A stretch of 64,000 nt of DNA from Candidatus Heimdallarchaeum aukensis (GTDB lineage: Archaea; Asgardarchaeota; Heimdallarchaeia; Heimdallarchaeales; Heimdallarchaeaceae): NCBI GenBank assembly GCA_021513695.1, contig CP084166.1:2400001-2464000 (forward strand). Direction: 5' to 3'. Below, one piece after another: positions 7,577 to 51,217 of this stretch. Numbering within the stretch: the first letter of the stretch is position 1; the number at the start of each line of letters is the position of its first letter. The notes under the pieces were generated by a model. It saw only the letters and a list, made by a program, of their open reading frames with translations. It was not told the origin of the DNA and made no database searches. The translations under genes and the position numbers were made by a program.

Positions 7577-8119
7577 TTACACTTTGTCTGTTATGTGGTC
7601 AACAATTCTGAAAAGCATAGCAAAAGGAGTTAAGGCTCCAAGAATGTAAACAAAGAAGTTAATAATTATAACCACTATTGGAACAGGAATGTATAGAGAT
7701 CCAATTGATAAACCGATCAGGATAACTAAGAATATGATAAATCCTAAAAGTATTTTTAAGGCTCCACCAAACGCACCAAAGAAACTAACCTTCTTAGAGA
7801 ATTTAGGTCCTCTTGTTGCAGTGAAAATAAAAGCTGCAAAACCACCGATCATTATGAACAAAAATCCTAAAATTATTAGTACAAAACCAATAATGCTTGC
7901 TACATTTCCGAAGAAAGCTGTTGGATCTAATAATACACTGAAGTCTCCTCCAATCAAAGCTAAAAGCGCTGTAAAGTCAAACAGGAAAAATCCTCCTACA
8001 ACTAACCCAAAACCAATTATGTTGTAAACTATTGATATTAGTATGTAGATGATTGCTCTTCCATACGATTCAAAAAAATTCGAGATTCCCGACTGTTCTT
8101 TATAAACCATTTTTTTCAC
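7577..8119 (-). CDS. hypothetical polytopic membrane protein
   Basis: 180 aa with 4-5 hydrophobic helices rich in G/F/I/L. Confidence 0.5.
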   Translation of the reverse strand: MKKMVYKEQSGISNFFESYGRAIIYILISIVYNIIGFGLVVGGFFLFDFTALLALIGGDFSVLLDPTAFFGNVASIIGFVLIILGFLFIMIGGFAAFIFTATRGPKFSKKVSFFGAFGGALKILLGFIIFLVILIGLSIGSLYIPVPIVVIIINFFVYILGALTPFAMLFRIVDHITDKV

Positions 8120-8183
8120 CTAATATTTTATTTTTGTAAAGATTTAGTAGAAGAGACATATAAATCTTTGCTATCTTGGAGGA

Positions 8184-8199
8184 GGTAGTGTCTAGTTTT
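8184..8199. repeat. IS left terminal inverted repeat
   Basis: GGTAGTGTCTAGTTTT, the perfect reverse complement of 8930-8945. Confidence 0.85.
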
Positions 8200-8238
8200 C
8201 TTCCGACAAAATATTTGTGGGGACTCTAATAGTAAGAT

Positions 8239-8937
8239 ATGAAAACACAAAAACTATCTACTCTTTTTAAGAGATGCAGAGTCCCCAAAAAAATAATAAT
8301 AAAAGCTATTTATGAATATATTGGTTCAAAGAATGGTTTGAGGACAGTAGCATGGAAGAATGGTTTAACGCATCAAACATTATGGTATTGGGTAAAGAAG
8401 TTCAGGCTCTTTAGGGAAAGTTTACATAGAGTTGTAGCAGAGAGAGGGGGAATACCAGAGATTATAGTAGTAGATGAAACAGAGATTAGGACCTCTCAAG
8501 GCTCAATATATCTGTGGTTCGCGTTAGATCCTTACAACAAGACTTTACTGGGTTTTAGTATTACTAAAGGACGGAGTAATCTTGAATGTTTACTAACTTT
8601 CCGTTATTGGTTCAAATGTTGGGGTTTTAAGCCCCGTATTGTCGTTACAGATGCAGGAGTATGGTATCCTGTCTTACTTCGTCTCGGTATCAAAATCTCT
8701 GTTATCAAAGGTGGTTTACGCTCCTATATTGAACGTTTTAATGCTACTCTTAAGAGTTATCGTTGGTTTCATTCTATTCTCCACTGCACTTGTCCTATCC
8801 GTGCCGTCTATGGCTCTACTCATCTTTCTGGTTTCCTTACTCTCTTTATGCTCCATTATAATTTCGTTCGTCCTCATCAGAGCTTGGGACATCCTCCCCT
8901 TAGTTCCTTTTTACCTAGGAGGTGGTATAAAAACTAG
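8239..8937 (+). CDS. DDE transposase, IS6-family-like
   Basis: 232 aa. VVDETEI...LWFALDP...YIERFNATLKSY resembles the IS6 DDE organisation (DETY..., AID, IEqdHR.iK). Bounded by the TIRs. Confidence 0.75.
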   Translation: MKTQKLSTLFKRCRVPKKIIIKAIYEYIGSKNGLRTVAWKNGLTHQTLWYWVKKFRLFRESLHRVVAERGGIPEIIVVDETEIRTSQGSIYLWFALDPYNKTLLGFSITKGRSNLECLLTFRYWFKCWGFKPRIVVTDAGVWYPVLLRLGIKISVIKGGLRSYIERFNATLKSYRWFHSILHCTCPIRAVYGSTHLSGFLTLFMLHYNFVRPHQSLGHPPLSSFLPRRWYKN

Positions 8938-10214: not shown

Positions 10215-10931
10215 TTAATTTCTTTTTGTTTCTTTTTCAATTACTCCATCTCTCATGTGAATGGTCCTTTTTGCCACTTTTGCAGCAGATAAGTTGTGAG
10301 TAACCATCAAAATGGTTGTATTCTTTTTCTCATTTAATTCTTGTAAAAGTTCTAAAACTCTTTGTCCAGTTTGTGAATCAAGGTTTCCTGTAGCTTCATC
10401 ACATAATAATATGACAGGGTCGTTTACTATACTTCGCATTATTGCTACTCTTTGTCTTTCTCCAGAACTTAATTCTTCAGGAAACTTGTGTTTTAGATGA
10501 TTTAAATCAAAATCATCAAATAGTTTGTTTACTTTTTTTCTTCTCTCGGAGTAATCTTGATAGTCAAAAATGAGTGGAAGTTCCACGTTTTCGTAAGCTG
10601 TTAAACCATCAATTAGGTTGAAAAATTGAAAAACAAATCCTATCTTTCTTCTTCTAAATTTTGCTAGTTCGTTTGGAGAGAATTTAGTTACATTCTCTCC
10701 GTCAATTATTATGGATCCTTCAGTTGGGTGTTCTATTGTTCCAATTAGATTTAGTAATGTGGTTTTTCCACTCCCTGAAGGTCCAACACATGAAACAAAT
10801 TCTCCTTTGTCAATTGAAAAACTTATATCTCTGACTGCTATAACCTCATTTTCTCCAACAGTAAATGACTTTTTTACGTGTTCAACTTTCACAATAGGAT
10901 TCATTCTCGAGAAGACTTCTTTAATATGCAC
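10215..10931 (-). CDS. ABC transporter ATP-binding protein (MacB/LolD-like ATPase subunit)
   Basis: Walker A GPSGSGKTT, Q-loop, signature LSSGERQRVAIMRS, Walker B ILLCDEATGNLD, H-loop VTHN. No adjacent permease gene. Confidence 0.9.
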   Translation of the reverse strand: MHIKEVFSRMNPIVKVEHVKKSFTVGENEVIAVRDISFSIDKGEFVSCVGPSGSGKTTLLNLIGTIEHPTEGSIIIDGENVTKFSPNELAKFRRRKIGFVFQFFNLIDGLTAYENVELPLIFDYQDYSERRKKVNKLFDDFDLNHLKHKFPEELSSGERQRVAIMRSIVNDPVILLCDEATGNLDSQTGQRVLELLQELNEKKNTTILMVTHNLSAAKVAKRTIHMRDGVIEKETKRN

Positions 10932-22567: not shown

Positions 22568-23305
22568 TCACTTGAATTTTTTTACGAGTTGTTTTAGAAT
22601 TGTTTGTATTGTTTCTATTTTTTCTTCTATTTTCTCCACTCTTTTAACAAGCTTATTGAATTCGTCAGCTGATACTTCTACTTCTCCAGAGACTGATTCC
22701 ATCATCGATTCTTTAATATCTATAATTCCAGGAGCAAGTTCTTTTTTCTTTGTTACTTTAACGTTATTTGCTTCGAGAAGTGTGTAAGCCAAGAAATCAA
22801 ACGTTTCTTGGATATTTTGTCCTGTTAATGCCGATGTTTCACTATAGTAGAAGTTTATTCCCGTTTCAGTCATTAGTCTCTGACAAAATTCTATAGCCAT
22901 TTTCTGTGATACTCTCCTATTTTCTGGAGGAAGATCGATCTTATTAGCTATTACAAAGTAAACTAGAATTCCAGAATTTGAACCTTCAATACTCTCTTCT
23001 AGCCATGTTCGTAGATTAGTCATTGTTTGTTGATCTTGGATATCAAATACCAACAAAGCAGCTATAGCTCCTTTATAAAAAGTTGACCTAACAGCTGAAT
23101 AGCTATCTTGTCCTGCAAGATCCCATATCTGAAAAGTGATGTCATTGTCTTCTACTTTTACTTTTTTTGAAGCAAAGTCAGCCCCAATTGTTTTAAGATA
23201 GTCTCCTGTAAATCCTTTTCCCATATATCTCTCTCTAATAGAGGTCTTTCCTACTGCTCCATCTCCAGCCAATACAATTTTAAAATTCCATTTTTTTCCT
23301 GTCAA
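22568..23305 (-). CDS. Ras/Rab-like small GTPase (eukaryote-type) with C-terminal coiled-coil extension
   Basis: G1 GDGAVGKT, G2 Thr region (TIGADF), G3 WDLAGQ, G4 NKID, G5 ETSA. TTG start 4 bp after the upstream gene's stop. Confidence 0.85.
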   Translation of the reverse strand: MTGKKWNFKIVLAGDGAVGKTSIRERYMGKGFTGDYLKTIGADFASKKVKVEDNDITFQIWDLAGQDSYSAVRSTFYKGAIAALLVFDIQDQQTMTNLRTWLEESIEGSNSGILVYFVIANKIDLPPENRRVSQKMAIEFCQRLMTETGINFYYSETSALTGQNIQETFDFLAYTLLEANNVKVTKKKELAPGIIDIKESMMESVSGEVEVSADEFNKLVKRVEKIEEKIETIQTILKQLVKKFK

Positions 23306-25576: not shown

Positions 25577-25817
25577 ACAATAGTGACTAGATAGCTTTCT
25601 GATTCATTGATTTTTTCTGGATATGTTAGTAATAAGGCTCAAGAGACTAAAACGCAGATATTTCTGAATTCATATTTGATTAAACTTTCGTTCTATTTAT
25701 TAAAAAAATAACAAATTCTTGTGTAAATTAACCATGTGTATATATAATTCAACGTTCTTATCTGAATCTAAAAGTTTAAGAGTTTCTAAACTAGATATTT
25801 TCGTAGACAAAGTGAAA

Positions 25818-26420
25818 ATGATGAAAACGCTTTTCGATAAATCAAAATTCGATATGAAAGTAGAAGAAATTATGACAAAAGGGGTAATTTCTGTTGCCCC
25901 AAAAGCAAGTGCAGAAGTTTGTGCCAAACTAATGATCGATAATAAGATTGGCTCTGTCGTAGTAATAGACAGTAGTAAAAAAATTCTAGGTATCATTACC
26001 AAAGAAAATCTAATTAAACATGTTATAGCACAAAATGCAAGTCCAGAAGAAGTAAAAGCTTTTGAGATAATGTCTGCGCCAGTAATTACAGCTAGAGAGA
26101 CAATAACTATTTCAGAAGCTATGCGAAAAATGTTTAAAGAGAATATCCGCCACTTGGTGATTACTGATTCACAAGGATTTGTAATAGGAATATGTACAGA
26201 TACAGATCTGTTTAAAGTAGTTCCCACTTTAATTCTGATAGAAAAAGAATATTTGCAACTGATGAGAAATGAAGAGGAAGATACTAAAAATGAAGAATTA
26301 GTATCAGGATATTGTGATGACTGTGGAGAATATTCAGATTCACTAATGGAAATTGATGGCCAATTTAAGTGCCCAAGATGTGTCCCAGAAGATATAAACA
26401 TTATGCCACCTGAAATATAG
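25818..26420 (+). CDS. CBS-pair domain protein with C-terminal Cys4 zinc ribbon
   Basis: Two CBS motifs (IMTKGVISVAP...KIGSVVVID..LGIITKENL; FEIMSAPVITA...IRHLVITD..GICTDTDL). CDDCGEY...CPRC ribbon. Start uncertain; in-frame alternatives at 25719 (TTG) and 25734. Confidence 0.75.
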   Translation: MMKTLFDKSKFDMKVEEIMTKGVISVAPKASAEVCAKLMIDNKIGSVVVIDSSKKILGIITKENLIKHVIAQNASPEEVKAFEIMSAPVITARETITISEAMRKMFKENIRHLVITDSQGFVIGICTDTDLFKVVPTLILIEKEYLQLMRNEEEDTKNEELVSGYCDDCGEYSDSLMEIDGQFKCPRCVPEDINIMPPEI

Positions 26421-39167: not shown

Positions 39168-41786
39168 ATGAAACTAAAGAAATTTATGGTATTTTTAGTT
39201 ATTCTATCTATTCTAACGATAAATTTTACTCTTCTACAAGGTATGGCTGACACACCACAAAATATTCTGATTTTATCGGAAGAAATAGATGATTCTCTAA
39301 AGGATAGATTTCAACTTGATCCTTCCTTTTCTGTAACTATACAATCACAACTCACAGGTTCACTTGATGGTTATTCTGGAATAATCTTGTATGATTATGC
39401 TCCTAAAAGTTCAGAATATAACCAAATTTTATCTTTCTCTGGGGGTATTGCTAGTTTCATTGGTGCTTCATTATTGTCTAACAGCTCAATTTTACTTGGT
39501 CTAAATATGATATCGGACTCTGTTGGAGAATTAATTAATACAACAGCTCTTCCAGAACCAATAGATCAAAAATCAGAACATGAACTCATAGCAAATATTA
39601 GATGGAACTCTGTTGTTCAAATTAGAAACTTTACGAGCTTACCACTGGCAAACACAATTCTAATTGAAACTTCTTCAGAAAGTAAAACACCAAACATTCC
39701 ACTTGTTAGTACTAATAATGATAATTCACGTATAGCTATTAATTTTCTTCCCAGTGAGCAGGCAAATAGCGAATTTATCCAATGGCCCTATTTTAATTAC
39801 TTCTTAAACATAATACTTAATCTAATTACGTCACAAAAACCACAATCTTACGCAGATTGGCCTTATTCTCCTGTTCCACATAAGTCAGCAACGATAGGTT
39901 TGGGTTTAATGGTATTACTCACTTCAGCTATCACTATTGCTGTGTATATTTTTGTAAAACGCTATTCCTCTAGGAACCCTATCAAAGAAGAAGACTTAGA
40001 AGAAATAAGTAAGGAAATAAAAGAAGAAAAAGACTGGGAAGATATTGGAATGCATAGACAGTTGGCAGGTTTCTTTGTCCAACTGTTTATTGGTTTGCTT
40101 ATAATTCTCCCCAATGTTGTTATGTCTTCTCTAATTTTTCCTCTCTACATTCTTCCAAGTCCTCAAGCAGCAGGATTTTATGATTTTACAATTCGGTTTT
40201 TTGAAGTATTATGGTTGATGTTTGATATTGGTACCTCTGTTGTACTCGTGAAATTCTTTAGTCAACATAGAGTAAAAAACCCACAACAAGCAGTAAAATA
40301 TATTCAAATTTTTATTTATTATCAGATGATTAGTGGGGTACTTCAACTCTTCTTAGTTTCCTTTATTGGTTCAATTTTCTTTCCTCGTTCCTTCTTAGCT
40401 CATTTAAGCTGGCTCTTTGTGACCCATGCTTTCTTCCAGTGGCCTGCGTTTTTTGTTGTTTTCATGCTAATTTTCCAAGCAATGAATCGACATGACATGT
40501 ATCAGATTCTCAACATTCTCCTATATGGAGTATTCAATATCACAATTCAGTATGGTGTTATAGTTATTTTTAGAGTTACTCTAGGAAAAAATCCTATTTT
40601 TGGTGATGGTTTAGCTGGAGCAATTGGATACAGTGTTGGAAATTATGTGATACAAGTAGTTACATTTCTTTTAGGACTATGGATGTTTAAACGCCAAAAA
40701 TTCTCTCTCAAAAGTATATTCAGAATCGATTTTTCTATGGCCGAGATTAAGGAGTCTCTAAGTTTCGGTTTTAAGTGGATGATAGGAAATATTCTTCCTC
40801 CATTAGGTTGGTTTGCGCAAATGTTTCTCCTTTCAACTTTTCTCCCTAACTATACTGAACAACAAGGTTATTTCTCTCTTGCATGGAATTTTGCATTAAT
40901 AGTCATGATAGCTGGGTTGTTTGCACAATCAATTTTACCTGGAGTTTCAGAATCATATCATGGAAAGAAAAAAGTACTAACAAGATACTACACACTAAAC
41001 TCTTTGAAGTGGGGAGCATACTTTGACTGGTTCTTTGTTTCTGCGCTATTAGCTATTGGTCCTCGTTTCATCATAGGAGGAGCGGGAGAAGAATGGGCTT
41101 CTGCAGCAATTATTATACGGTGGATACTCTTATTCCATTTCTTTGGATATTTATCTTGGATTGGAGATTGGATGTTTGCAGGTTCTGATCGTCCTGGTTG
41201 GGCTGCAATAAGTTGGGTAATAGAACAAGTAATAAGAACAGGATTACTTGTTGCGTTCATTCCAGCATATAAATTCTTTACAATTCACTTCAATTCTCCT
41301 ATGATTGGAGTACTTTTTGCATATATTCCCGCTCTAATTATAAAGAATGCATTTATGTGGTGGGGTATACGTAGAGACGACTTTTTCAAGTTCAGATGGA
41401 AAGACCTCTGGTATCAAGGTGTAGTAACTCCTTTACTTTCTGCTCTAGCATTGTTTAGTGTACTTGAACTACTATTTACAGTAATTTGGAAAGGAGAGAT
41501 AATTACATCAGTCGTAATTCTGTTAATTGGAATAATACCAGGACTTTACCTTTTTGCGTTCTTTATGGGACTATTCGGTGGATTTGATGATAACACATTA
41601 ACAGAACTCAAGAGAAGTACAGATATGGTTAAAGGAGTAGGATTTATGGCTAGACCCCTTTACAAACTTACAGAATGGGGGACGAAGATTTCTCCACTTC
41701 ATAACAGATTCCCTATCTCTATATACAATGAGGCCATTAAAGAAGCAGAGGAATTAACAAAAGAAAAAGCTAAACTCGTAATATAG
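39168..41786 (+). CDS. large polytopic membrane protein with N-terminal signal/anchor and about 220-aa extracytoplasmic domain (possible MOP-type flippase/transporter)
   Basis: 872 aa with at least 14 hydrophobic helices after a soluble N-terminal domain. Confidence 0.5.
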   Translation: MKLKKFMVFLVILSILTINFTLLQGMADTPQNILILSEEIDDSLKDRFQLDPSFSVTIQSQLTGSLDGYSGIILYDYAPKSSEYNQILSFSGGIASFIGASLLSNSSILLGLNMISDSVGELINTTALPEPIDQKSEHELIANIRWNSVVQIRNFTSLPLANTILIETSSESKTPNIPLVSTNNDNSRIAINFLPSEQANSEFIQWPYFNYFLNIILNLITSQKPQSYADWPYSPVPHKSATIGLGLMVLLTSAITIAVYIFVKRYSSRNPIKEEDLEEISKEIKEEKDWEDIGMHRQLAGFFVQLFIGLLIILPNVVMSSLIFPLYILPSPQAAGFYDFTIRFFEVLWLMFDIGTSVVLVKFFSQHRVKNPQQAVKYIQIFIYYQMISGVLQLFLVSFIGSIFFPRSFLAHLSWLFVTHAFFQWPAFFVVFMLIFQAMNRHDMYQILNILLYGVFNITIQYGVIVIFRVTLGKNPIFGDGLAGAIGYSVGNYVIQVVTFLLGLWMFKRQKFSLKSIFRIDFSMAEIKESLSFGFKWMIGNILPPLGWFAQMFLLSTFLPNYTEQQGYFSLAWNFALIVMIAGLFAQSILPGVSESYHGKKKVLTRYYTLNSLKWGAYFDWFFVSALLAIGPRFIIGGAGEEWASAAIIIRWILLFHFFGYLSWIGDWMFAGSDRPGWAAISWVIEQVIRTGLLVAFIPAYKFFTIHFNSPMIGVLFAYIPALIIKNAFMWWGIRRDDFFKFRWKDLWYQGVVTPLLSALALFSVLELLFTVIWKGEIITSVVILLIGIIPGLYLFAFFMGLFGGFDDNTLTELKRSTDMVKGVGFMARPLYKLTEWGTKISPLHNRFPISIYNEAIKEAEELTKEKAKLVI

Positions 41787-41789
41787 CCA

Positions 41790-42263
41790 CTATATTTTTT
41801 TACTTTTATTTTTTTTATATTTTAGAATTGTTTGTTTTACCCAATTTTCGACCTCTTGATCATTTAACAATTCGTCACAATAATCCCAATATTCTCCTGC
41901 TAAAAGTCCCATCAGAGCAATTTTTTTGAATTTGCTAGGTTTTTTTGGTGTCAATACAAACAAGAAAAGGTATCTTGCTGCTTTATTTCTTATTTTTTTA
42001 ATATCTACATTATCTGAAAAAATTATTTCCTCATCTCGTATAGTTACAGCAACATCAGCACTCATAGTAGTTAAATTAGCTATCTTAACTAAAGAGAGTA
42101 AAGCATAATTTCGTATCCAATCTATGCGAGAAAAAGTTAATGCATGGTGATAAAGAGAAGAAACACAACCATTTTTTATTAACTCTCGCATAGCTTGTTT
42201 CCTTGTTTTGTCTCCTGATGAAGGTCTTACAATTAACTCATCAAACTCTTTACAATTGTTCAT
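41790..42263 (-). CDS. hypothetical protein
   Basis: 157-aa ORF with helical-repeat-like composition. Confidence 0.4.
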   Translation of the reverse strand: MNNCKEFDELIVRPSSGDKTRKQAMRELIKNGCVSSLYHHALTFSRIDWIRNYALLSLVKIANLTTMSADVAVTIRDEEIIFSDNVDIKKIRNKAARYLFLFVLTPKKPSKFKKIALMGLLAGEYWDYCDELLNDQEVENWVKQTILKYKKNKSKKI

Positions 42264-42314: not shown

Positions 42315-44492
42315 TTATTTTTTATATTCAAATTTTTCTGACACTCTAATGTCTCTAGATGAGAAACCTATAAGCAACTCAAATGTTCCTTCTTCTACTT
42401 TCCATTGATGTGATTGGGGGTCGTAGTATTGTAAATGTTCTCTGTTGAAATTAAACTGAATTTGTTTTTCTTCTCCTTCTTTAAGTGATATCTTAGCAAA
42501 ACCTTTTAGTTCCTTAAAGGGACGAATTAACGAGCAATCAACATCTCGAATATAAGCTTGAACCACAACTTTTCCACCTCTTTTCCCTGTGTTTCTAACC
42601 TTAAGTGTTGCTTGTATGGTTTCATTTCCTTTGAAACTTTTCTTGTTCAAAGTAAGGTTGTCACAATCAAAAGAAGTGAATGATAGACCATGACCGAACG
42701 GAAATTGGGGTTCTATATTCTGAGTATCGAAGTGTCTGTATCCTATCATTATTCCTTCCTTATAATTCATTGTTGTTGAAACAAAAAAGCGGTTTTTTTC
42801 TTTTGTATTTTGCTTTAAATGTTTAATTTTTTGATTAAGGTAGTCATCTGCATAATTTTTGACAGTAGAAAAGTCATTCCATCTCTTTGCCATTGTGAAA
42901 GGAAGTTTGCCTGAAGGGTTAACTTTTCCTAAAATAACTTCTGCTACAGGAATTGCTGCATTTTGCCCAAGGTAAAAACTGTGAATAATAGCTTCGACTG
43001 AGTTTAACCAACTTTCAGTTTCAAATCCTCCTCCAGCATTTACTACTACGATTATTTGTTTATTCAGTTCTGCTACTTTTTTGATCAATTTGGATTGATT
43101 TTGAACAAATTCCCAAGGTCTATCTAACGTTTCTGTTTCTTCCCATTCAGTAAAACCTGTACAAATAATAACTTTATCTGCTTCTTTTATTAGCTGTTGA
43201 TCCTTTTTTGTGATCTTATCTCTGTTTGACTTAATTGGAATAAAGTTGATGTTTGGAGCTAATTCCACTAGAGCTTCAAAAATACTCTTAGAATTAGGCA
43301 CATGAACATAGCATGACCCTCCTCCACTTGTGGGTGTTTTAAATGCGTTTCTTCCCAAAACAGCTATATTCTGTTCTTTCAGTGCATCAATTGGAAGACT
43401 ATTTATTTCATTTTTTAGCAAGACAATACTCTCTCTTGCAATTTCAAGGGCGATTTCATTATTTTTTTCTATCAAACTTTCAAAGTTTATTTTTTCTTTT
43501 CTCCTTCCGTATACACCCATTTCGAAAAATACTTTGAGGATATTTCTAACTTTAGAGTCAATCTCATCAAAGGAAGAAATGTTAGTACTCATGTGTTTCT
43601 TTTGTAAGTAATTAAGAATCTTTGTAACTGTGTAATGTTTAGCTTCTGGCATTTCAATATCTAAACCAGCTTCTAATGGTCCTTCAGTACTATAAACCGA
43701 ATCCCAATCAGATATTATAATTCCATCAAATTTCCACTTATTTCGCAAAATTTCAGTAAGTAGTTCTTTGTTCTCACTACAATGAACTCCATTAACTAAA
43801 TTGTATGCAGACATAATAGCTTTGGCTTTTCCTTTTTGAACAGCAGCTTTGAAAGCTGGAAAATATATCTCGTGAAGAGTTCTTTCATCAATAATAACGT
43901 TAGTTGAATGTCTTTTGTATTCGGAGTTGTTTGCTACAAAGTGCTTAACTGTTGCTATAATGCCTGTTTCTTGTAATCCTTGGACATAAGGAACAACAAG
44001 CTCAGAAGCTAAAAAAGGATCTTCTCCCATATACTCAAAATTTCTTCCATTAGTAGGAACTCGATAAATATTTACTCCTGGACCAAGTAAAACAGATATG
44101 TCTTTTGCTCTACACTCCTCACCTATTGCCTTAGCAACTTTGAAAATCAAATCTCTATTCCAACTTGCAGTCATAGCTATCAATGATGGAAAAGCCGTTG
44201 ACCTTCCATAAGTTCGAATACCAGAAGACGCATCTGTAGTCCAGACACGAGGAAGTTTTAAACGTTCAACACCAGAAATAGCAAAAATTTCTTCTCCAGA
44301 AAGAAGATTTATTTTTTCATTAAGTGTTAATTTATTTATAAGATATTCAACTTTTTCTTCTGTTGTTTCGAGTGAAAAAAATTCCTGTTTTCTAATTTCT
44401 TCATTAAGTTTAATGTCAGGTTCAAGTTTCTGGCTGAAATCAGGAGGAGAAGTAAAGATATGGTGAAGTATAACTTTTAATAATTTGTTCAT
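42315..44492 (-). CDS. bglX: beta-glucosidase, glycoside hydrolase family 3
   Basis: GH3 N-terminal KHFVANNSEYKRHSTNVIIDERTLHEIYFPAFKAAV. Nucleophile region GIIISDWDSV. C-terminal FnIII-like domain. 725 aa. Confidence 0.9.
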   Translation of the reverse strand: MNKLLKVILHHIFTSPPDFSQKLEPDIKLNEEIRKQEFFSLETTEEKVEYLINKLTLNEKINLLSGEEIFAISGVERLKLPRVWTTDASSGIRTYGRSTAFPSLIAMTASWNRDLIFKVAKAIGEECRAKDISVLLGPGVNIYRVPTNGRNFEYMGEDPFLASELVVPYVQGLQETGIIATVKHFVANNSEYKRHSTNVIIDERTLHEIYFPAFKAAVQKGKAKAIMSAYNLVNGVHCSENKELLTEILRNKWKFDGIIISDWDSVYSTEGPLEAGLDIEMPEAKHYTVTKILNYLQKKHMSTNISSFDEIDSKVRNILKVFFEMGVYGRRKEKINFESLIEKNNEIALEIARESIVLLKNEINSLPIDALKEQNIAVLGRNAFKTPTSGGGSCYVHVPNSKSIFEALVELAPNINFIPIKSNRDKITKKDQQLIKEADKVIICTGFTEWEETETLDRPWEFVQNQSKLIKKVAELNKQIIVVVNAGGGFETESWLNSVEAIIHSFYLGQNAAIPVAEVILGKVNPSGKLPFTMAKRWNDFSTVKNYADDYLNQKIKHLKQNTKEKNRFFVSTTMNYKEGIMIGYRHFDTQNIEPQFPFGHGLSFTSFDCDNLTLNKKSFKGNETIQATLKVRNTGKRGGKVVVQAYIRDVDCSLIRPFKELKGFAKISLKEGEEKQIQFNFNREHLQYYDPQSHQWKVEEGTFELLIGFSSRDIRVSEKFEYKK

Positions 44493-44601
44493 TTATATTA
44501 TAAAAACTAAAAGAATAGTTAAGTGTTATTATTACTATAGTTTGATTATTTATTAAAAAAAAAGACAAATGTTTTTAATAAAAAGTGCAAATTAAATAAC
44601 G

Positions 44602-45675
44602 ATGATAACTCCTTCAATATTTGCATTTTCTTTCCTAATAGAATCAACATTGTTGCTAGGATTTACTACCTATATTTTCATGAAAACCTATCTACAAATC
44701 AAGCACATATCTAATCTTCTAATGAGTATTGGGACAGGATTAGTGATGATTTCCTATTTCGTATCTTTTGGAATGGATTTTATTGATCAAACTGATGTTC
44801 AATCAGCTAAAATAATTTTGTCAATTACAAACATGATAATAACCATAGGTCTATTTTTTATTGCTCTATCTTTATTCTATATAAAATCAAAATATTTCAA
44901 CATCGCAGCAATTGTAGGTTCTTTTCTTGTTGGAATTGCGTTTATTACAGTTTCAAACACTGATAATCTAAGAATGTATTACAATGAAAAAGTTAATTTT
45001 TGGATTAATGACTATACAAAATATGCTAATATATTAATGAGTTCTATTTTTCTTGTTATTTTTATTTTAATTGCTTTGTATGTTACTGAAAAAATAAGAT
45101 ACATAGTAAATAAGAAAAAATTGTTCTCTTTCACTGTTCTTGGAATTTTTATTGCTTTTATATGGTTAGCAATAATTTCTATTCCTGGAGTATATATTTA
45201 CAGAGTCTATATTCTTCCTTTAGCACTATTTTTTATTGGTTTAGATAATTTATTTAATCCTCTAAGTCTGATAGTTTCTCATAACAAGCCAAGAGAAATC
45301 TTTCTTCTTTCAAGAACAAATGTTCCCCTTGTTGGTTATGACTACAGAAAACAAGAGAAAATAAATGATTTGAGTGATATTCGAATACTTAGAGTAAGTC
45401 AGCTACTTATAGAAGAGAAAGTAGGAGAAACAAAAGATGCCCACTTCTCTGCGAAACAAGGAGAATTAATATCCATAGCTTATGAGTGCTTTATTTTAAC
45501 AACAATTGCCAAGGAAATAGACCCTAATTTAAAATCTGTGCTCTATCTAACTTTGCAGAGGTTTTGTGATTGTATAAATTATTCAGTGTTTATATCTTCT
45601 GAAGTTTTAAAGAAAGATGAAGAAGAAAAGTTTCTTATGATTCTAAAAAGCAATCTAGATGCAATATTGTATTAA
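44602..45675 (+). CDS. membrane protein: N-terminal 7-TM domain plus C-terminal soluble domain (possible roadblock/LC7-like); paralog A
   Basis: 357 aa. The C-terminal region EIFLLSRTNVPLVGYDY...GELISIAYECFILTTIAKEIDPNL shows the alternating pattern seen in roadblock/LC7 domains. This is tentative. Confidence 0.5.
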   Translation: MITPSIFAFSFLIESTLLLGFTTYIFMKTYLQIKHISNLLMSIGTGLVMISYFVSFGMDFIDQTDVQSAKIILSITNMIITIGLFFIALSLFYIKSKYFNIAAIVGSFLVGIAFITVSNTDNLRMYYNEKVNFWINDYTKYANILMSSIFLVIFILIALYVTEKIRYIVNKKKLFSFTVLGIFIAFIWLAIISIPGVYIYRVYILPLALFFIGLDNLFNPLSLIVSHNKPREIFLLSRTNVPLVGYDYRKQEKINDLSDIRILRVSQLLIEEKVGETKDAHFSAKQGELISIAYECFILTTIAKEIDPNLKSVLYLTLQRFCDCINYSVFISSEVLKKDEEEKFLMILKSNLDAILY

Positions 45676-45825
45676 AAAGCAAGTACATTCTTTTTTTTAT
45701 TAAAACTAAAAAATGTCTACACTTGTTAATTGAATACATAATTGAAAAAGTTTTAAAAAATTTTAAGAACCTGAACTTGCCTATAAACAAAAAAGAGCAT
45801 AATTTTTTTAAGTTAATTTCAGCAT

Positions 45826-46905
45826 TTGATGATGATGCTAGTTTCTCTATACTCCTTATCATACTTTATCGAAGCTATTCTGTTTTATGGCTTTACATCG
45901 CTTATTTTCATTAAAAGCTACTTGAAATTAAAGCATGTTTCTAACCTATTTATGAGTATTGGAACATTTTTTGTTCTGCTTTCTTATGGTCTGTCTTTTT
46001 CATTAGCTTTTATTAGCCCAGAAAATTTAGAAAAAGCTAAAAAAATTTTGGTAAGTACAAATATGTTACTTATACTTGGTGTTTATTTAATTTCTATAGC
46101 ACTCATCTATATAAAATCAAAATTTTTCAATGTTGCGGCTATTACGAATTCTTTTTTGATAGGAGTCGCTTTTATAACTCTTTCTCACATTGAAAATTTA
46201 ACAATGACCTACAATGAAAGGGTGAAATATTGGGAAACAGACTATTCAAAACATGCGACTATATTACTATGTTCAGCTTTTTTGTTTATCGCAATTATAA
46301 TCTCTCTTTATGTGGTTGAGAAATTAAAGTATGACATTAAAAAAAGAAAATTCATTTCATTAACAACATTGGGGATATTTACTTGGTTCATATGGATATT
46401 AATAGTTCCTATTCCCAGATTATACCTATATCGGATATTTATATTGCCTTTAGCGCTTTTTTTTGTTGGTTTAGATAATTTATTCAATCCTTTAAGTTTG
46501 ATTGTATCTTCAAACAAGCCAACAGAAATCTTTCTTCTTTCAAAAACTAATATCCCTCTTGTTGGTTATGATTATAATAAAAGAAAGAAAATAGAAGATT
46601 TAAACGATATTAGAATACTTAGAGTTAGCCAACTAGTCATAGAAGAAAAAGTAGGAGAAACAAAAAATGCGTACTTTCACGCAACAGAGGGAGAATTACT
46701 CTCAATTGCTTACGGAAATTATATTTTAACAACTATCGCTAAAAAAATAGATGCTAACTTGAAAACTGTGCTTTCTCTAACTTTAAGAAAGTTTAACTCA
46801 TATATTAATGTCTCATCAGAAAAAAATGCAGAGGAGTTAAAACAGGATGAAGAAAAGATGTTTCTTACGATTCTAAATAATTATCTGGACACAATCTTAC
46901 ATTAA
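45826..46905 (+). CDS. paralog B of 44602..45675 (7-TM plus C-terminal roadblock-like domain)
   Basis: 359 aa, collinear with paralog A, with about 50-60% identity by eye across the TM and C-terminal domains. Confidence 0.5.
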   Translation: MMMMLVSLYSLSYFIEAILFYGFTSLIFIKSYLKLKHVSNLFMSIGTFFVLLSYGLSFSLAFISPENLEKAKKILVSTNMLLILGVYLISIALIYIKSKFFNVAAITNSFLIGVAFITLSHIENLTMTYNERVKYWETDYSKHATILLCSAFLFIAIIISLYVVEKLKYDIKKRKFISLTTLGIFTWFIWILIVPIPRLYLYRIFILPLALFFVGLDNLFNPLSLIVSSNKPTEIFLLSKTNIPLVGYDYNKRKKIEDLNDIRILRVSQLVIEEKVGETKNAYFHATEGELLSIAYGNYILTTIAKKIDANLKTVLSLTLRKFNSYINVSSEKNAEELKQDEEKMFLTILNNYLDTILH

Positions 46906-47169
46906 AGAATCTTTTTTCTGCTGATTTTCTAATTTGGAAATATTTTTAAGTACTCAATAAGAACCTATTGTGATAACAATGGATCTCATCCTCTCCTTAT
47001 AGTGTGTTGCGAGGGGAACTCGCGCTAAGAAAAAATGTCATGAATTTTGATTAGATTAGCGGCGAGTAGAGAAATTGTTAGAGTTTTGTTTTTACTTAAA
47101 CTGAGCTACAATTTTACTTTTCTCATACTAGCTGTTTTCTAATCAAATTTTGTTTAATCAAAAACGGAG

Positions 47170-48162
47170 GTGAAAAAAGTGTCAAATTACACAAAATTAA
47201 AGTGGTATCGCTTTGATATTGCAAGAAGAATCAGAGCGCTTGATGGAGAAGAACTAGTTGCAGAATTGGAAAAAATAATAGAAGAAATCAAAAGAAAAAA
47301 GTTAGATCGATTAGGCGTATTTAAAGTACAGATTAGAGAATTGGAACAGCTAATAGAAAATGAAAAAGCTCAACCAAAGAGAAAAGGAAGACAATACGAC
47401 CCCTTCTTTATTCCATATGGAGGGGATGGAAGAGTTGCACTTTTTGGTTTGTCAAATGTCGGAAAAAGCTCGCTTATGAATGCTATAACTAACGCAGAAG
47501 TAGCTACAGGAAATTATTTGAACACTACGAGACAAGCATTAGCAGGGACGTGTGAATACGAGAATGTAAAAATTCAGATTATTGATTTACCCGGTTTCCT
47601 AGACTTTAAAGAGGATTGGAACATTAGTAAACAAATCTTAAGGGTTGCTCGAACTTGTGACTCTATAACACTTGTAATAGATTTGTCAATGAATGTTGAA
47701 AGACAATATAACTTTCTTATCCAACAATTAGAAAACGCTAGATTAATTAAAGATGGAGAAACAATCTACAAATTTGCCATTATTGCAACAAAAGGTGATC
47801 TTCCTTGTACAGAAGAAGCTTTCAAGAAATTGAAAACAATAACTGATTTATCCATATGCCCAATCTCAATGAAAAATAAGGATTCTTTGGACAGATTAAA
47901 GAAAATGCTCTTTGAAACATTAAATGTAGTAAGGGTCTATACCAAGAAACCTAAAAATCAACCTGATATGGAGCATCCTCTCGTTCTACCAAAAGGTTCA
48001 ACAGTTAAAGATGTAGCACTGAAATTACACAAGGATTTCCTTAAATTTTTCAAATATGCTAGAATTTGGGGTAAATCTTGCGATTTTCCTGGTCAAAGAG
48101 TAGGGGTTGAGCATATTCTTGAAGACGAGGATATAGTAGAAATTTCAACTTCACAAAAATAG
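47170..48162 (+). CDS. DRG/Obg-family GTPase with C-terminal TGS domain
   Basis: G1 GLSNVGKSS, G3 DLPG, G4 ATKGD. TGS-like C-terminus VRVYTKKPK...KYARIWGKS...QRVGVEH..EDEDIVEI. GGAGG at 47166-47170. Start is GTG 47170 or GTG 47179. Confidence 0.85.
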   Translation: MKKVSNYTKLKWYRFDIARRIRALDGEELVAELEKIIEEIKRKKLDRLGVFKVQIRELEQLIENEKAQPKRKGRQYDPFFIPYGGDGRVALFGLSNVGKSSLMNAITNAEVATGNYLNTTRQALAGTCEYENVKIQIIDLPGFLDFKEDWNISKQILRVARTCDSITLVIDLSMNVERQYNFLIQQLENARLIKDGETIYKFAIIATKGDLPCTEEAFKKLKTITDLSICPISMKNKDSLDRLKKMLFETLNVVRVYTKKPKNQPDMEHPLVLPKGSTVKDVALKLHKDFLKFFKYARIWGKSCDFPGQRVGVEHILEDEDIVEISTSQK

Positions 48163-48258: not shown

Positions 48259-48777
48259 ATGGATTCAGTAAGCCATGGAAGCGTTTCCACTCTTATCGGT
48301 TTTATTTTCATTCAATTTTATGACGTACCGTTTTTCCCCTTGCTGGCTATATTGTTTGTATGGGGAGTTTTAGTTGATTATGATCATGCAATATATTATA
48401 AGCAAAAACATCCTGAAGCAAAAATATGGAATATTCCTCAACTAATTAAGATCTATTTCAGTACTGTGGATAACAATGATGAATTTATTTATCATACATG
48501 GTTGCATGAACCATTAGGGGTATTGTTTGTAAGTGCAATAACAGTTCCAATTTTTTATTTCACTAAATATCCTGAATTTATAATTCTAGCAATAAGTTGT
48601 TACTTTTTTCATTTTTTACTAGATTTATTTTCTGGAAAGATGAAACCTTTAGCTCCCTTTAACGAAGAATTCACAATAAGATGGCAAATTCTTCCACGAA
48701 ATTCATTTACTGCTGCTTCAATATCATTGTTAGTATTTTTAGTTACATTGTCTATACAAATATTCATAGGTTTCTAA
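48259..48777 (+). CDS. hypothetical membrane protein (possible DUF457/YdjM-like metal-dependent hydrolase)
   Basis: 172 aa with 4 TM helices and conserved His/Asp near the helix ends (VDYDH, HTWLHEP). Confidence 0.4.
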   Translation: MDSVSHGSVSTLIGFIFIQFYDVPFFPLLAILFVWGVLVDYDHAIYYKQKHPEAKIWNIPQLIKIYFSTVDNNDEFIYHTWLHEPLGVLFVSAITVPIFYFTKYPEFIILAISCYFFHFLLDLFSGKMKPLAPFNEEFTIRWQILPRNSFTAASISLLVFLVTLSIQIFIGF

Positions 48778-48823: not shown

Positions 48824-51217
48824 ATGTCAACAGAATTTGTAGGTAAAGTTCCTACTAAATTGGTAAAACTAGTGCTAAATCATGTTATAAGAAAAAAACA
48901 CTTTAAAAATAATCAAGTTATTCCGCCAGAGAATTGGCATTCGTTAGGTAATTTTGTAGGAATAGATAAAGAAAAGATGGAGATAAAACTAGAAAATGGT
49001 GAAATGAAGATAGAATATATCAAGCCCCATATAGTCAAGATTTTTTATGGTCTAAAAAAAGAAAAAAAGCCGTTAAGTTTTGCTATTGAGAAAGATCTTG
49101 ATTCATTTACACAAATTTTTGTTAGCGATAGAAAAGAAGTAGTAGACATAAGCCCTAAAGGAAGTAAGAAACAACAGAGTATTTCCATTATTATTGATAA
49201 AGATAATAATCTCTGCATTTTTAAATCTCCAAGAGGAGAGATTTATTCTGAAACTATACCAATTTATTCAGAAGAAAAGTGGTATAGAAGTTTAAAGATA
49301 TCAAATAAAACAAGAGAACATTATTTTGGTTTTGGAGAAGCTACAGGAGAGTTAGATAAAGTTAATAATACTGTTGCATTTTGGAATACTGACAGTCTAC
49401 CTTATGACAATAAAAGAAAAAATCTCTATCAAAGCCAGCCAATTCAAGTTACAATTCAAGAAAATGGTTTAATTTATGCAATAATTTATGATAACCCATA
49501 CAAATCTACAATTTCTGTTGAAAAAAACGAAGCAGGTTACATAACTGAATATTCTGTCGCTGGAGGAGGAATAATTTATTACCTTATAGTCAGTTCATCA
49601 ATTTCAGGCCTGTTTTCTGAATTAACATACATTTTAGGAAAAGTACCTCTTCCTCCATTAAATTCTCTAGGTCACCATCAAAGCCTATGGTCATATAAGA
49701 ATGAAGAAGAAGTGAGAAAAGTCGCAGAAACTTTCAGAAATAAGCAAATACCTTGCGACTTTATTCATTTAGACATTGATTATATGGATGGCTATAGAAT
49801 ATTTACGTGGAATAAAGAACGATTTCCAAATATTAAAGAATTATCGTCTGAATTACTCGAAAAACACAACATTAAACTTCTCGCTATTACCGATCCAGGA
49901 ATAAAAGTTGATCCCGAATATTTTATGTATAAGGAAGGAATAAAAGATAATCATTTTGTCAAAAATGAAGATGGAAAAACACTATTCGAAGGAGAAGTAT
50001 GGCCCGGACAATGTCATTTTCCTGACTTTAGCCAGCAAAAAACAAGAGAATGGTTTGGTAGTAAGTTTAAGATTTTAGATGAGTGTGGAATAGAAGCTTT
50101 TTGGATAGATATGAATGAACCTTCAGTTTTTTCAGAATTAGGGACTATACCAGAGGCTGCAATTCATCCTTGCGATGGAAAAAACAGATCTCATGCAGAA
50201 ATGCATAATCAATATGGACACTTGATGTCAAAAGCGGTTTATGAGGGATTAAAAAAAATCAATGAAAATAAACGTGTATTCATTTTAACTCGTTCAGCCT
50301 ATATTGGAACACAAAGATATGCTGGGAGCTGGACAGGAGATAATAATGCTGAATGGGGGCACCTAAGAATGAGTTTACCTATGTTGATGAATATGGCTAT
50401 AAGTGGACAAGTAATGATTGGTCCTGATATTGGGGGTTTTCTAGGAAAACCTTCTGCAGAATTACTCATTAGATGGTACCAAGCAGGATTATTCTATCCC
50501 TTTTTCAGAAATCATAGTATAAATAAAAATTGCCGACATGAGCCATGGGTATTTGGAAAGCGTGTAGAAAAAATTATCCGCAAAACAATCCAATTAAGGT
50601 ATCAGTTATTACCCTATCTCTATACTTCGCTGGTGGAAACTTGTAAAACTGGTATACCTCTCTTTAAAGCTCTTTTCATTGATTACATAAACGACGAAGA
50701 GGTCTATAATAAACAATGGCTTAATACTGAGTATTTAGTGGGAAATTCATTACTTATTGCACCAATTCTTAAAAAATGGAGAAGAAAAAGAAAAGTATAT
50801 TTTCCTAAAGGGACAAAATGGTTTAGTTTTGATGGTAGTCAAATTTATGAAGGAGGAAAAACATATACTATCTCTATCCCTCTTGATTCCTTCAATTTTA
50901 TTTTTATAAAAGAAGGTTCTATAATTCCAATAATTGATAAGGATATTCAATCAACAGAAGAAGTGCTGAAAGAGCCATTAACTATCCTAATTTGTGGAGA
51001 AAAAGAAGCAAAAGGAGAAGTTTACCTTGATGATGGTTATACTATGAATTATGAAAAAGAAGACTTTGAAATTGCAAGATTCGAAGCAAAGCTACAAGAG
51101 AAAGAATCATGGAATATTTACCTCTCTAGAGAAGGGAAAAAGAAGAAATACATCAATGTTGAAAATGTAAAGCAGGTAGGCCATAGGACTATAGGTTTTG
51201 CAATATTTGAAGAATAA
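48824..51217 (+). CDS. alpha-glucosidase, glycoside hydrolase family 31
   Basis: GH31 nucleophile motif FWIDMNEP. Acid/base region YAGSWTGDN. 797 aa. Confidence 0.9.
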   Translation: MSTEFVGKVPTKLVKLVLNHVIRKKHFKNNQVIPPENWHSLGNFVGIDKEKMEIKLENGEMKIEYIKPHIVKIFYGLKKEKKPLSFAIEKDLDSFTQIFVSDRKEVVDISPKGSKKQQSISIIIDKDNNLCIFKSPRGEIYSETIPIYSEEKWYRSLKISNKTREHYFGFGEATGELDKVNNTVAFWNTDSLPYDNKRKNLYQSQPIQVTIQENGLIYAIIYDNPYKSTISVEKNEAGYITEYSVAGGGIIYYLIVSSSISGLFSELTYILGKVPLPPLNSLGHHQSLWSYKNEEEVRKVAETFRNKQIPCDFIHLDIDYMDGYRIFTWNKERFPNIKELSSELLEKHNIKLLAITDPGIKVDPEYFMYKEGIKDNHFVKNEDGKTLFEGEVWPGQCHFPDFSQQKTREWFGSKFKILDECGIEAFWIDMNEPSVFSELGTIPEAAIHPCDGKNRSHAEMHNQYGHLMSKAVYEGLKKINENKRVFILTRSAYIGTQRYAGSWTGDNNAEWGHLRMSLPMLMNMAISGQVMIGPDIGGFLGKPSAELLIRWYQAGLFYPFFRNHSINKNCRHEPWVFGKRVEKIIRKTIQLRYQLLPYLYTSLVETCKTGIPLFKALFIDYINDEEVYNKQWLNTEYLVGNSLLIAPILKKWRRKRKVYFPKGTKWFSFDGSQIYEGGKTYTISIPLDSFNFIFIKEGSIIPIIDKDIQSTEEVLKEPLTILICGEKEAKGEVYLDDGYTMNYEKEDFEIARFEAKLQEKESWNIYLSREGKKKKYINVENVKQVGHRTIGFAIFEE

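Follow-up and report, generated by a model that had tools for sequence, protein, structure and literature searches.

Gene pair and genomic context

We analyzed a stretch of 64,000 nucleotides from the genome of Candidatus Heimdallarchaeum aukensis (assembly GCA_021513695.1, contig CP084166.1, positions 2,400,001 to 2,464,000 of the forward strand; hereafter the window), in which two adjacent open reading frames (ORFs) are predicted to encode membrane proteins with seven transmembrane (TM) helices and a C-terminal longin/roadblock-like domain (LD). Both belong to an undescribed and unannotated Asgard protein family, referred to here as 7TM-LD. The features of the pair, numbered from the first nucleotide of the window, are as follows:

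44602..45675 (+): paralog 1, an ORF starting with ATG and encoding a 357 amino acid 7TM-LD protein.
44617..45255 (+): seven-helix bundle of paralog 1, residues 6-218, with the N-terminus predicted outside.
44968..45015 (+): β-hairpin in the TM4-TM5 loop of paralog 1, residues 123-138 (strands E123-128 and E133-138), predicted extracellular, with conserved Y127, W134, and Y138.
45256..45672 (+): junction (N219-P220) and predicted cytoplasmic LD of paralog 1, residues 219-357, with the order β1 β2 αA β3 β4 β5 αB αC αD (secondary structure, Foldseek, and weak Pfam and PDB sequence matches).
45676..45831 (+): inter-paralog spacer, read directly from the sequence, with a run of eight T 15 nucleotides past the stop codon of paralog 1 and an AT-rich stretch ahead of paralog 2.
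45826..46905 (+): paralog 2, an ORF with the architecture of paralog 1, 359 amino acids long if the TTG at 45826 is used.
46486..46902 (+): junction and LD of paralog 2, residues 221-359 in the 359 amino acid numbering (hmmsearch with LD profile A5, E = 7.7e-39, residues 221-358).

An initial annotation of this DNA, made from the sequence alone, had described a tandem pair of paralogs. Both ORFs lie where it placed them, on the forward strand, and their products align by BLASTP over 357 residues without gaps (59% identity, 80% positives, E = 8e-155). Identity rises to 68% in the C-terminal 139 residues, and the conserved C-terminal block quoted in that annotation is found in both proteins. Paralog 1 is 97-100% identical to hypothetical proteins of Heimdallarchaeaceae, and paralog 2 is identical to P0003, a hypothetical protein of Ca. 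H. aukensis. As for the lengths first given, the 357 amino acids of paralog 1 stand, while the 359 amino acids of paralog 2 are counted from the TTG codon; since the NCBI record of the identical P0003 has 357 amino acids and begins with MMLVSLY, the true start is probably the ATG at 45832, which gives 357 amino acids.

For paralog 1, the ratio of nonsynonymous to synonymous substitution rates (dN/dS) is 0.12 when the Ca. H. aukensis gene is compared with its Ca. H. endolithica orthologue, and for paralog 2 it is 0.21; both are therefore real genes under purifying selection, and paralog 2 keeps every position conserved in the family. The inter-paralog spacer is 76% identical to its H. endolithica counterpart, the lowest conservation of any segment in the region, and the two paralogs may be separately transcribed. 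In H. endolithica the paralog 1 orthologue (L003:7968-10559) is interrupted by an insertion of ~1.4 kb, placed cleanly behind profile position 296 and encoding a 445 amino acid TnpB/Cas12f1-like protein (L003:8974-10311), and both halves (7968-8888 and 10347-10559) remain intact ORFs. An uninterrupted allele (P0002) is present in a related metagenome-assembled genome (MAG), and contig L007 opens with the same 70 amino acid 3' half, so the transposon insertion is recent and polymorphic.

Predicted structure of the seven-helix bundle

All structural statements made here rest on one AlphaFold2 model of paralog 1, computed from a 34-sequence family alignment, which reached a predicted local distance difference test (pLDDT) score of 91 and a predicted TM-score (pTM) of 0.89; an alignment of 6 near-identical sequences gave a pLDDT of 53. 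The model contains seven membrane helices (H6-33, H36-60, H66-96, H101-118, H140-170, H177-191, and H195-218), a count also supported by hydropathy, and the seven-TM layout first reported for both proteins is thereby upheld. In the model the helices pack in the manner of G protein-coupled receptors (GPCRs), with the N-terminus outside and the C-terminus inside, and the protein is thus predicted to consist of a GPCR/rhodopsin-type seven-helix membrane bundle with the LD fused at the end of TM7.

Sequence searches gave no GPCR family assignment: neither window protein matched 7tm_1, 7tm_2, 7tm_3, Frizzled, or the other GPCR families, a single weak Pfam match to 7tm_3 was found among the 34 members (E = 0.013), and sequence searches of the PDB returned no GPCR below E = 5.8. 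The TM7 sequence lacks the retinal-binding lysine of microbial (type I) rhodopsins. The bacterial families 7TMR-DISM_7TM (PF07695; E = 0.92 in two members, against a cut-off of 29 bits) and 7TM-7TMR_HD (PF07698; E = 0.041 in one member) were not reached either.

The C-terminal domain is predicted to be longin-type

In the model the LD follows TM7 (H195-218) and an Asn-Pro linker, and comprises E230-237, E242-247, H258-274, E281-284, E287-294, E297-303, H308-324, H327-333, and H338-355, where E denotes strands and H helices. The resulting order is β-β-α-β-β-β-α-α-α, with no N-terminal helix and with three C-terminal helices. Foldseek gave a probability of ~1.0 both to roadblock structures (the Gtr/Rag C-terminal domain, MglB, a Streptomyces Robl/LC7 domain [3kye], dynein LC7, and LAMTOR) and to longin structures (AP-2/3/4 mu and sigma, and zeta-COP), with target-normalized TM-scores to both groups of 0.44-0.55. 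The top match was the Gtr/Rag C-terminal domain in the GATOR1-Gtr-Lam complex, followed by MglB and LAMTOR.

The initial annotation had assigned this domain to roadblock/LC7 and named a non-roadblock fold as the outcome that would speak against it; AlphaFold2 and Foldseek returned a roadblock-like fold. The predicted LD has the roadblock core, a five-stranded antiparallel sheet on a central helix, and its AlphaFold2 secondary structure has no roadblock N-terminal helix ahead of strand 1. The predicted order of elements agrees with longin connectivity (β-β-α-β-β-β-α-α, no N-terminal helix). Under the rule given by Tran et al. (PMC10933270), a domain that has extra C-terminal helices and no N-terminal one counts as longin-type. 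Because the modeled LD has no N-terminal helix, its connectivity under this rule is longin-type and not classical roadblock/LC7, within the roadblock/longin superfamily; the original assignment thus holds at the superfamily level and fails for connectivity.

At the sequence level, the window proteins gave no match to Robl_LC7 (PF03259), and 2 of 32 C-terminal domains of the family matched it below threshold (best E = 0.0086). Fuz_longin_1 was the commonest weak Pfam match of individual domains (4 of 32 members, best E = 0.0025), with Clat_adaptor_s (E = 0.031) and Sybindin (E = 0.1) in one member each; no significant match was reached to these families or to Longin. Against the PDB, LD profile A5 best matched 7f8f_A, a Robl_LC7 protein, with 72 residues aligned in register (E = 0.059, not significant), and four of the top six matches of sub-profile A6 were Trs23 (E = 0.08), Robl_LC7, Bet5 (E = 0.9), and MON1 (E = 1.6). 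As sequence evidence, these sub-threshold matches are mutually coherent. In structure comparisons and in the Pfam and PDB sequence searches alike, longins were matched roughly as well as roadblock proteins. Weak Pfam matches of two C-terminal domains to Ras (E = 0.0078) were treated as chance.

Membrane topology and conservation

Lysine and arginine residues number on average ~9 in loops 1, 3, and 5 vs ~3 in the N-terminus and loops 2, 4, and 6, an excess found in 28 of 29 full-length members. By the positive-inside rule, the N-terminus is therefore predicted to lie outside and the LD in the cytoplasm, and not in the extracellular position that the initial annotation had named as fatal to its proposal. 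The TM4-TM5 loop is acidic and poor in lysine and arginine across the family.

Four residues are invariant in the family (W188 in TM6, G111 in TM4, Y138, and P220), and R201 (TM7) and N77 (TM3) are 97% conserved. In the hairpin, W134 and Y127 are ~85% conserved, with Y127, W134, and Y138 ranging from 84 to 100% over 32 sequences. With the exception of P220 at the TM7-LD junction, the most conserved residues map in the model to the outer half of the bundle or to the predicted extracellular hairpin. Within the LD it is mainly the hydrophobic core that is conserved, and the LD surface varies much more than the outward-facing side of the bundle. Given where conservation is strongest, the outer bundle half and the hairpin may form an outward-facing binding site, a candidate ligand pocket.

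Extent and distribution of the family

A profile search run exhaustively over 1.84 billion representative sequences retrieved 35 representatives at E < 1e-3, nearly all of them 355-380 amino acids long and matched end to end, which places the family at ~35 clusters at 50% identity. All members with a named taxon are Asgard and belong to Heimdallarchaeaceae or Thorarchaeota, and many others are unnamed metagenome proteins. Word-indexed searches returned just four close Heimdallarchaeaceae relatives and, with the LD profile, fragments only. A scan of genomes with a narrower alignment found Ca. H. endolithica only, and a scan of metagenomes yielded three loci, of which two are identical.

Both window proteins, searched whole and as their C-terminal 139 residues, had no Pfam or NCBIfam match, and no member of the family exceeded any Pfam or NCBIfam threshold. 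No fusion of a 7TM bundle with a longin or roadblock domain was found described in the searchable literature, which did not include the tables of Asgard clusters of orthologous genes (asCOGs), so that an unnamed asCOG listing is possible; the early remark that such a fusion is unusual agrees with these searches. Liu et al. report 130 asCOGs of the roadblock superfamily as well as many fusions that are specific to lineages.

A neighbor-joining tree resolved several deep subfamilies, and one MAG encodes at least three members. A second tandem pair is located at L012:329-2754, in a MAG that also encodes P0005 (both full-length, 374 amino acids each, 60% identity, 176-bp spacer). In the tree its two proteins group as sisters within another subfamily, so they were duplicated independently of the window pair; the syntenic metagenome locus L015/L016 is single-copy.

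Gene neighborhood

A small sample of 13 independent gene contexts was compared, and none has a Ras-like GTPase in the 6-8 kb around a family member; for the last of them, L015/L016, this result comes solely from a Pfam scan of the neighbor proteins. Small GTPases encoded nearby had been part of the rationale of the initial annotation, and this part was not sustained. The gene directly downstream of paralog 2 (47170-48162) encodes a TRAFAC GTPase that resembles the Obg/Era/DRG class, contains MMR_HSR1 and TGS domains, and does not belong to the Ras superfamily. A genomic linkage of the family to GTPases was rejected, given this Obg/DRG-like type, a synteny (GTPase-YdjM-GH31) limited to Heimdallarchaeum, and the lack of Ras-like GTPases in the other contexts. 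The sole Ras-family GTPase of the window (22568-23305) lies ~21 kb from the pair.

Of the first 8 independent contexts, 5, distributed across the whole family tree, have a TPR gene no more than two genes from the family member. TPR genes thereby occupy 5 of 27 near positions and none of 60 more distant positions (Fisher p = 0.002); with the later loci added, a hand count gives p ~0.0025. Two of these genes adjoin a family member and encode TPR_12/TPR_MalT-type proteins that end in an LD, namely L010:5602-7608 (+; 668 amino acids, LD at residues 548-644, E = 2.6e-13) and L006:2908-4899 (-; 663 amino acids, LD at residues 527-655, domain E = 4e-6); the C-terminal domain of these two proteins has no Pfam model. 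In Thorarchaeota, a 359 amino acid protein encoded two genes from a family member (L004:9992-11071, -) has a hydrophobic N-terminal region of a different kind, followed by an LD (hmmsearch E = 6e-9, hhalign probability 89%), so the LD has been joined to more than one type of membrane module.

Genes for carbohydrate-active proteins surround family members in only two contexts, unrelated to each other, and were not seen at the other loci. Beside the window pair these are glycoside hydrolase (GH) genes, GH3 and GH31 (42315-44492, -; 48824-51217, +), and around P0028 (L013:1-9719) they encode GH1, GH57/polysaccharide deacetylase, a sugar transporter of the major facilitator superfamily, fucose isomerase, and transaldolase. 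Such surroundings may hint at a ligand or substrate related to sugars, although not as a general rule. A gene for a YdjM-family membrane protein is found within two or three genes of 7TM-LD genes at two loci whose contexts are otherwise unrelated (48259-48777, +; L014:3263-3760, +), which may be coincidence.

Other features of the window

The spacer between paralog 2 and the downstream GTPase gene (46906-47169) has a nearly invariant core of ~115 nucleotides, with a GC-rich hairpin (CCTCTCC...GCGAGGGGAAC) within AT-rich DNA. We considered whether this spacer is unusually conserved (93% over three genomes) and rejected the idea, as two of these genomes are nearly identical and raise that figure; aukensis and endolithica alone share 89% identity in the spacer, inside the 85-93% of the flanking coding sequences. 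It showed no covariation and no credible Rfam match (MIR1507 below threshold, E = 0.02), and no tRNA or RNA family was found in 44300-47400.

The segment 22568-23996 (-) holds the Ras/Rab-like small GTPase (Pfam Ras, E = 9.5e-40), which has a C-terminal extension of ~70 amino acids. The adjoining gene on the same strand encodes a 228 amino acid protein with weak matches, all below threshold, to a Rab11-FIP3-like domain (E = 0.0024) and to DUF3629/DUF4200, and the two are possibly a GTPase-effector pair. An 872 amino acid polytopic membrane protein (39168-41786, +) and a 157 amino acid protein (41790-42263, -) have no Pfam or NCBIfam match, and both are syntenic in Ca. H. endolithica. Two ORFs of 233 amino acids (25700-26401, -; 25719-26420, +) overlap almost fully on opposite strands.

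Proposed function and alternative explanations

We propose that the 7TM-LD proteins are sensors whose LD pairs with a second LD protein. The seven-helix bundle would sense an extracellular or membrane-borne ligand, and the signal would travel to the LD via the invariant Asn/Asp-Pro junction. The LD would dimerize, as all characterized longin/roadblock domains do, and its partner could be another 7TM-LD protein (the tandem paralog, in the window pair and in the second lineage) or a soluble TPR scaffold ending in an LD and encoded by a neighboring gene. In the most speculative step, the LD dimer would serve as a docking site, or as a regulatory platform of the guanine nucleotide exchange factor (GEF) or GTPase-activating protein (GAP) type, for a Ras-superfamily GTPase or a TPR-held effector. 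Taking the explanation as a whole, this platform step included, we are evenly divided as to whether it is right; the coupling of 7TM-LD proteins to GTPases is something that we infer only, by analogy.

Ragulator-Rag, TRAPP, and Mon1-Ccz1 provide precedents for such a GTPase platform. Others come from the MglA/MglB roadblock system, in which the all-TPR protein SgmX is a direct effector (PMC7668184), and from the Streptomyces conservon, which joins a membrane sensor, a roadblock protein, and a small GTPase (as cited in PMC4316618). Longin and roadblock proteins, including those of Asgard archaea, act as dimeric platforms (PMC10933270), and since LD-bearing genes lie side by side, this suggests pairing through the LD.

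Several points weigh against this proposal. The whole case is computational; the Foldseek E-values of the LD are only ~1e-2, because the LD makes up one third of the full-length query, and no longin or roadblock family match of the LD is significant by itself. No Ras-like GTPase was found within 6-8 kb of family members in any of the 13 contexts. TPR neighbors occur in none of the five later contexts and are absent from 8 of the 13, the window included, and three of the five TPR neighbors carry no confident LD, with one weak partial match (E = 1e-4). Tandem duplicates can also persist without forming heterodimers, and a transposon splits paralog 1 in H. endolithica, hence the pair is not strictly essential there.

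A stricter platform role would make the membrane-anchored LD mainly an anchor, GAP, or GEF for Ras-superfamily GTPases, in the manner of MglB, Ragulator, and the TRAPP longins, with the 7TM bundle as anchor or gate. It would draw on a fold that forms conserved GTPase-binding dimers, on the ranking of the Gtr/Rag C-terminal domain, MglB, and LAMTOR in Foldseek, on the weak matches to Trs23/Bet5 and MON1, all Rab GEF subunits, and on the conservon precedent. Ras-superfamily GTPases are numerous in Asgard archaea, which also have more than 100 roadblock/longin families; the roles of these proteins and the route by which GTPases without lipid anchors reach membranes are an open question (PMC10933270). 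The missing linkage to a Ras-like GTPase is weak counter-evidence, since in Lokiarchaeon MK-D1 small GTPase genes generally lie outside operons with roadblock/longin genes (PMC10933270). However, the only adjoining GTPase is Obg/DRG-like with genus-confined synteny, many longin/roadblock domains serve functions unrelated to GTPases (dynein LC7, longin SNAREs), and the LD surface is far less conserved than the outward part of the bundle, which argues against a pure anchor role of the latter. On balance we consider the strict platform role rather unlikely. A receptor hard-wired to a longin/roadblock GTPase platform, in which a ligand outside the cell would directly determine whether a Ras-superfamily GTPase is recruited or which nucleotide state it adopts, possibly by way of an LD heterodimer that includes a TPR scaffold, is in our view unlikely. 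If true, it would be a single-polypeptide "receptor-to-GTPase" device in the closest archaeal relatives of eukaryotes, would account for the arrival at the membrane of Asgard small GTPases that lack a lipid anchor, and would represent, among prokaryotes, an analogue or a precursor of signaling by GPCR-G protein or Ragulator-type systems.

Other readings place the function in the bundle or in trafficking. The polar and aromatic residues conserved within the bundle (N77, R201, W188, and K164) would also fit a substrate path, so that the bundle could be a transporter, channel, or membrane enzyme (e.g., for a sugar or anion) with the LD as a regulatory or oligomerization appendage, and the two carbohydrate gene contexts are in line with this. 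Yet that context is not kept at most loci, no transporter family scores in Pfam or NCBIfam, and TM7 has no retinal lysine; we consider this role distinctly unlikely. A role of the LD like that of the longin domains of SNAREs or of adaptor subunits, serving membrane remodeling or trafficking-type protein sorting and not signaling, appears highly improbable. The longin-type connectivity, the Foldseek matches to AP mu/sigma and zeta-COP, and the weak Clat_adaptor_s and Sybindin matches would fit, but no SNARE motif or coiled coil follows the LD, which is C-terminal to a polytopic bundle and not N-terminal to a tail anchor, and no coat, ESCRT, or SNARE genes were seen in any neighborhood examined.

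The proposed 7TM sensor with a pairing LD offers a testable entry to the roles of the Asgard roadblock/longin families and to the membrane recruitment of the GTPases, as the family provides a membrane-bound bait for a cognate GTPase or effector, a candidate ligand pocket, and candidate partners in the tandem paralog and the TPR-LD proteins. If GTPase coupling is true, it bears on the origin of receptor-to-G-protein signaling and of Ragulator/TRAPP-like platforms; if false, the family still adds an unannotated group to the archaeal 7TM proteins with fused cytoplasmic domains.

Comparison with known systems

The 7TM-LD family combines two known designs, a 7TM receptor with an output module and a membrane sensor with a roadblock/longin platform. 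Compared with eukaryotic GPCRs (class C, e.g., GABA-B/GPR156, and class A) and microbial rhodopsins, identity is ~8% with no significant family match, and homology is not established. In GPCRs the loops contact a heterotrimeric G protein, whereas the 7TM-LD family has a fused longin/roadblock output. The bacterial 7TMR-DISM and 7TM-7TMR_HD proteins are alike in joining a 7TM sensor and a cytoplasmic output in one polypeptide. The 7TM-LD proteins differ from 7TMR-DISM in having no large extracellular DISMED domain, and their Pfam scores are far below the cut-offs; to our knowledge, no longin or roadblock output module has been reported for either bacterial family.

The predicted LD shares its five-stranded sheet and central helix with roadblock/LC7 proteins (MglB, the GAP of MglA; CvnB of the Streptomyces conservon; LAMTOR2-5; and the Rag/Gtr C-terminal domains). 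It differs from them in having no N-terminal helix, three C-terminal helices, fusion to a 7TM bundle, and no linked cognate GTPase gene. Its order of strands and helices is that of longins (TRAPP Trs23/Bet5, Mon1-Ccz1, AP mu/sigma, zeta-COP, NPRL2/3, and longin SNAREs), to which the LD adds a third helix at its C-terminal end. Longin SNAREs, too, are longins anchored in the membrane, but they have an N-terminal longin domain and a single tail anchor, whereas the LD is C-terminal in a polytopic protein.

In eukaryotes, Ragulator-Rag together with SLC38A9 or the GPCR-like LYCHOS/GPR155 likewise brings a polytopic lysosomal sensor together with roadblock/longin dimers on the cytoplasmic face. These lysosomal assemblies are built from separate polypeptides that act on Rag GTPases, whereas in the 7TM-LD proteins the putative sensor and platform are fused.

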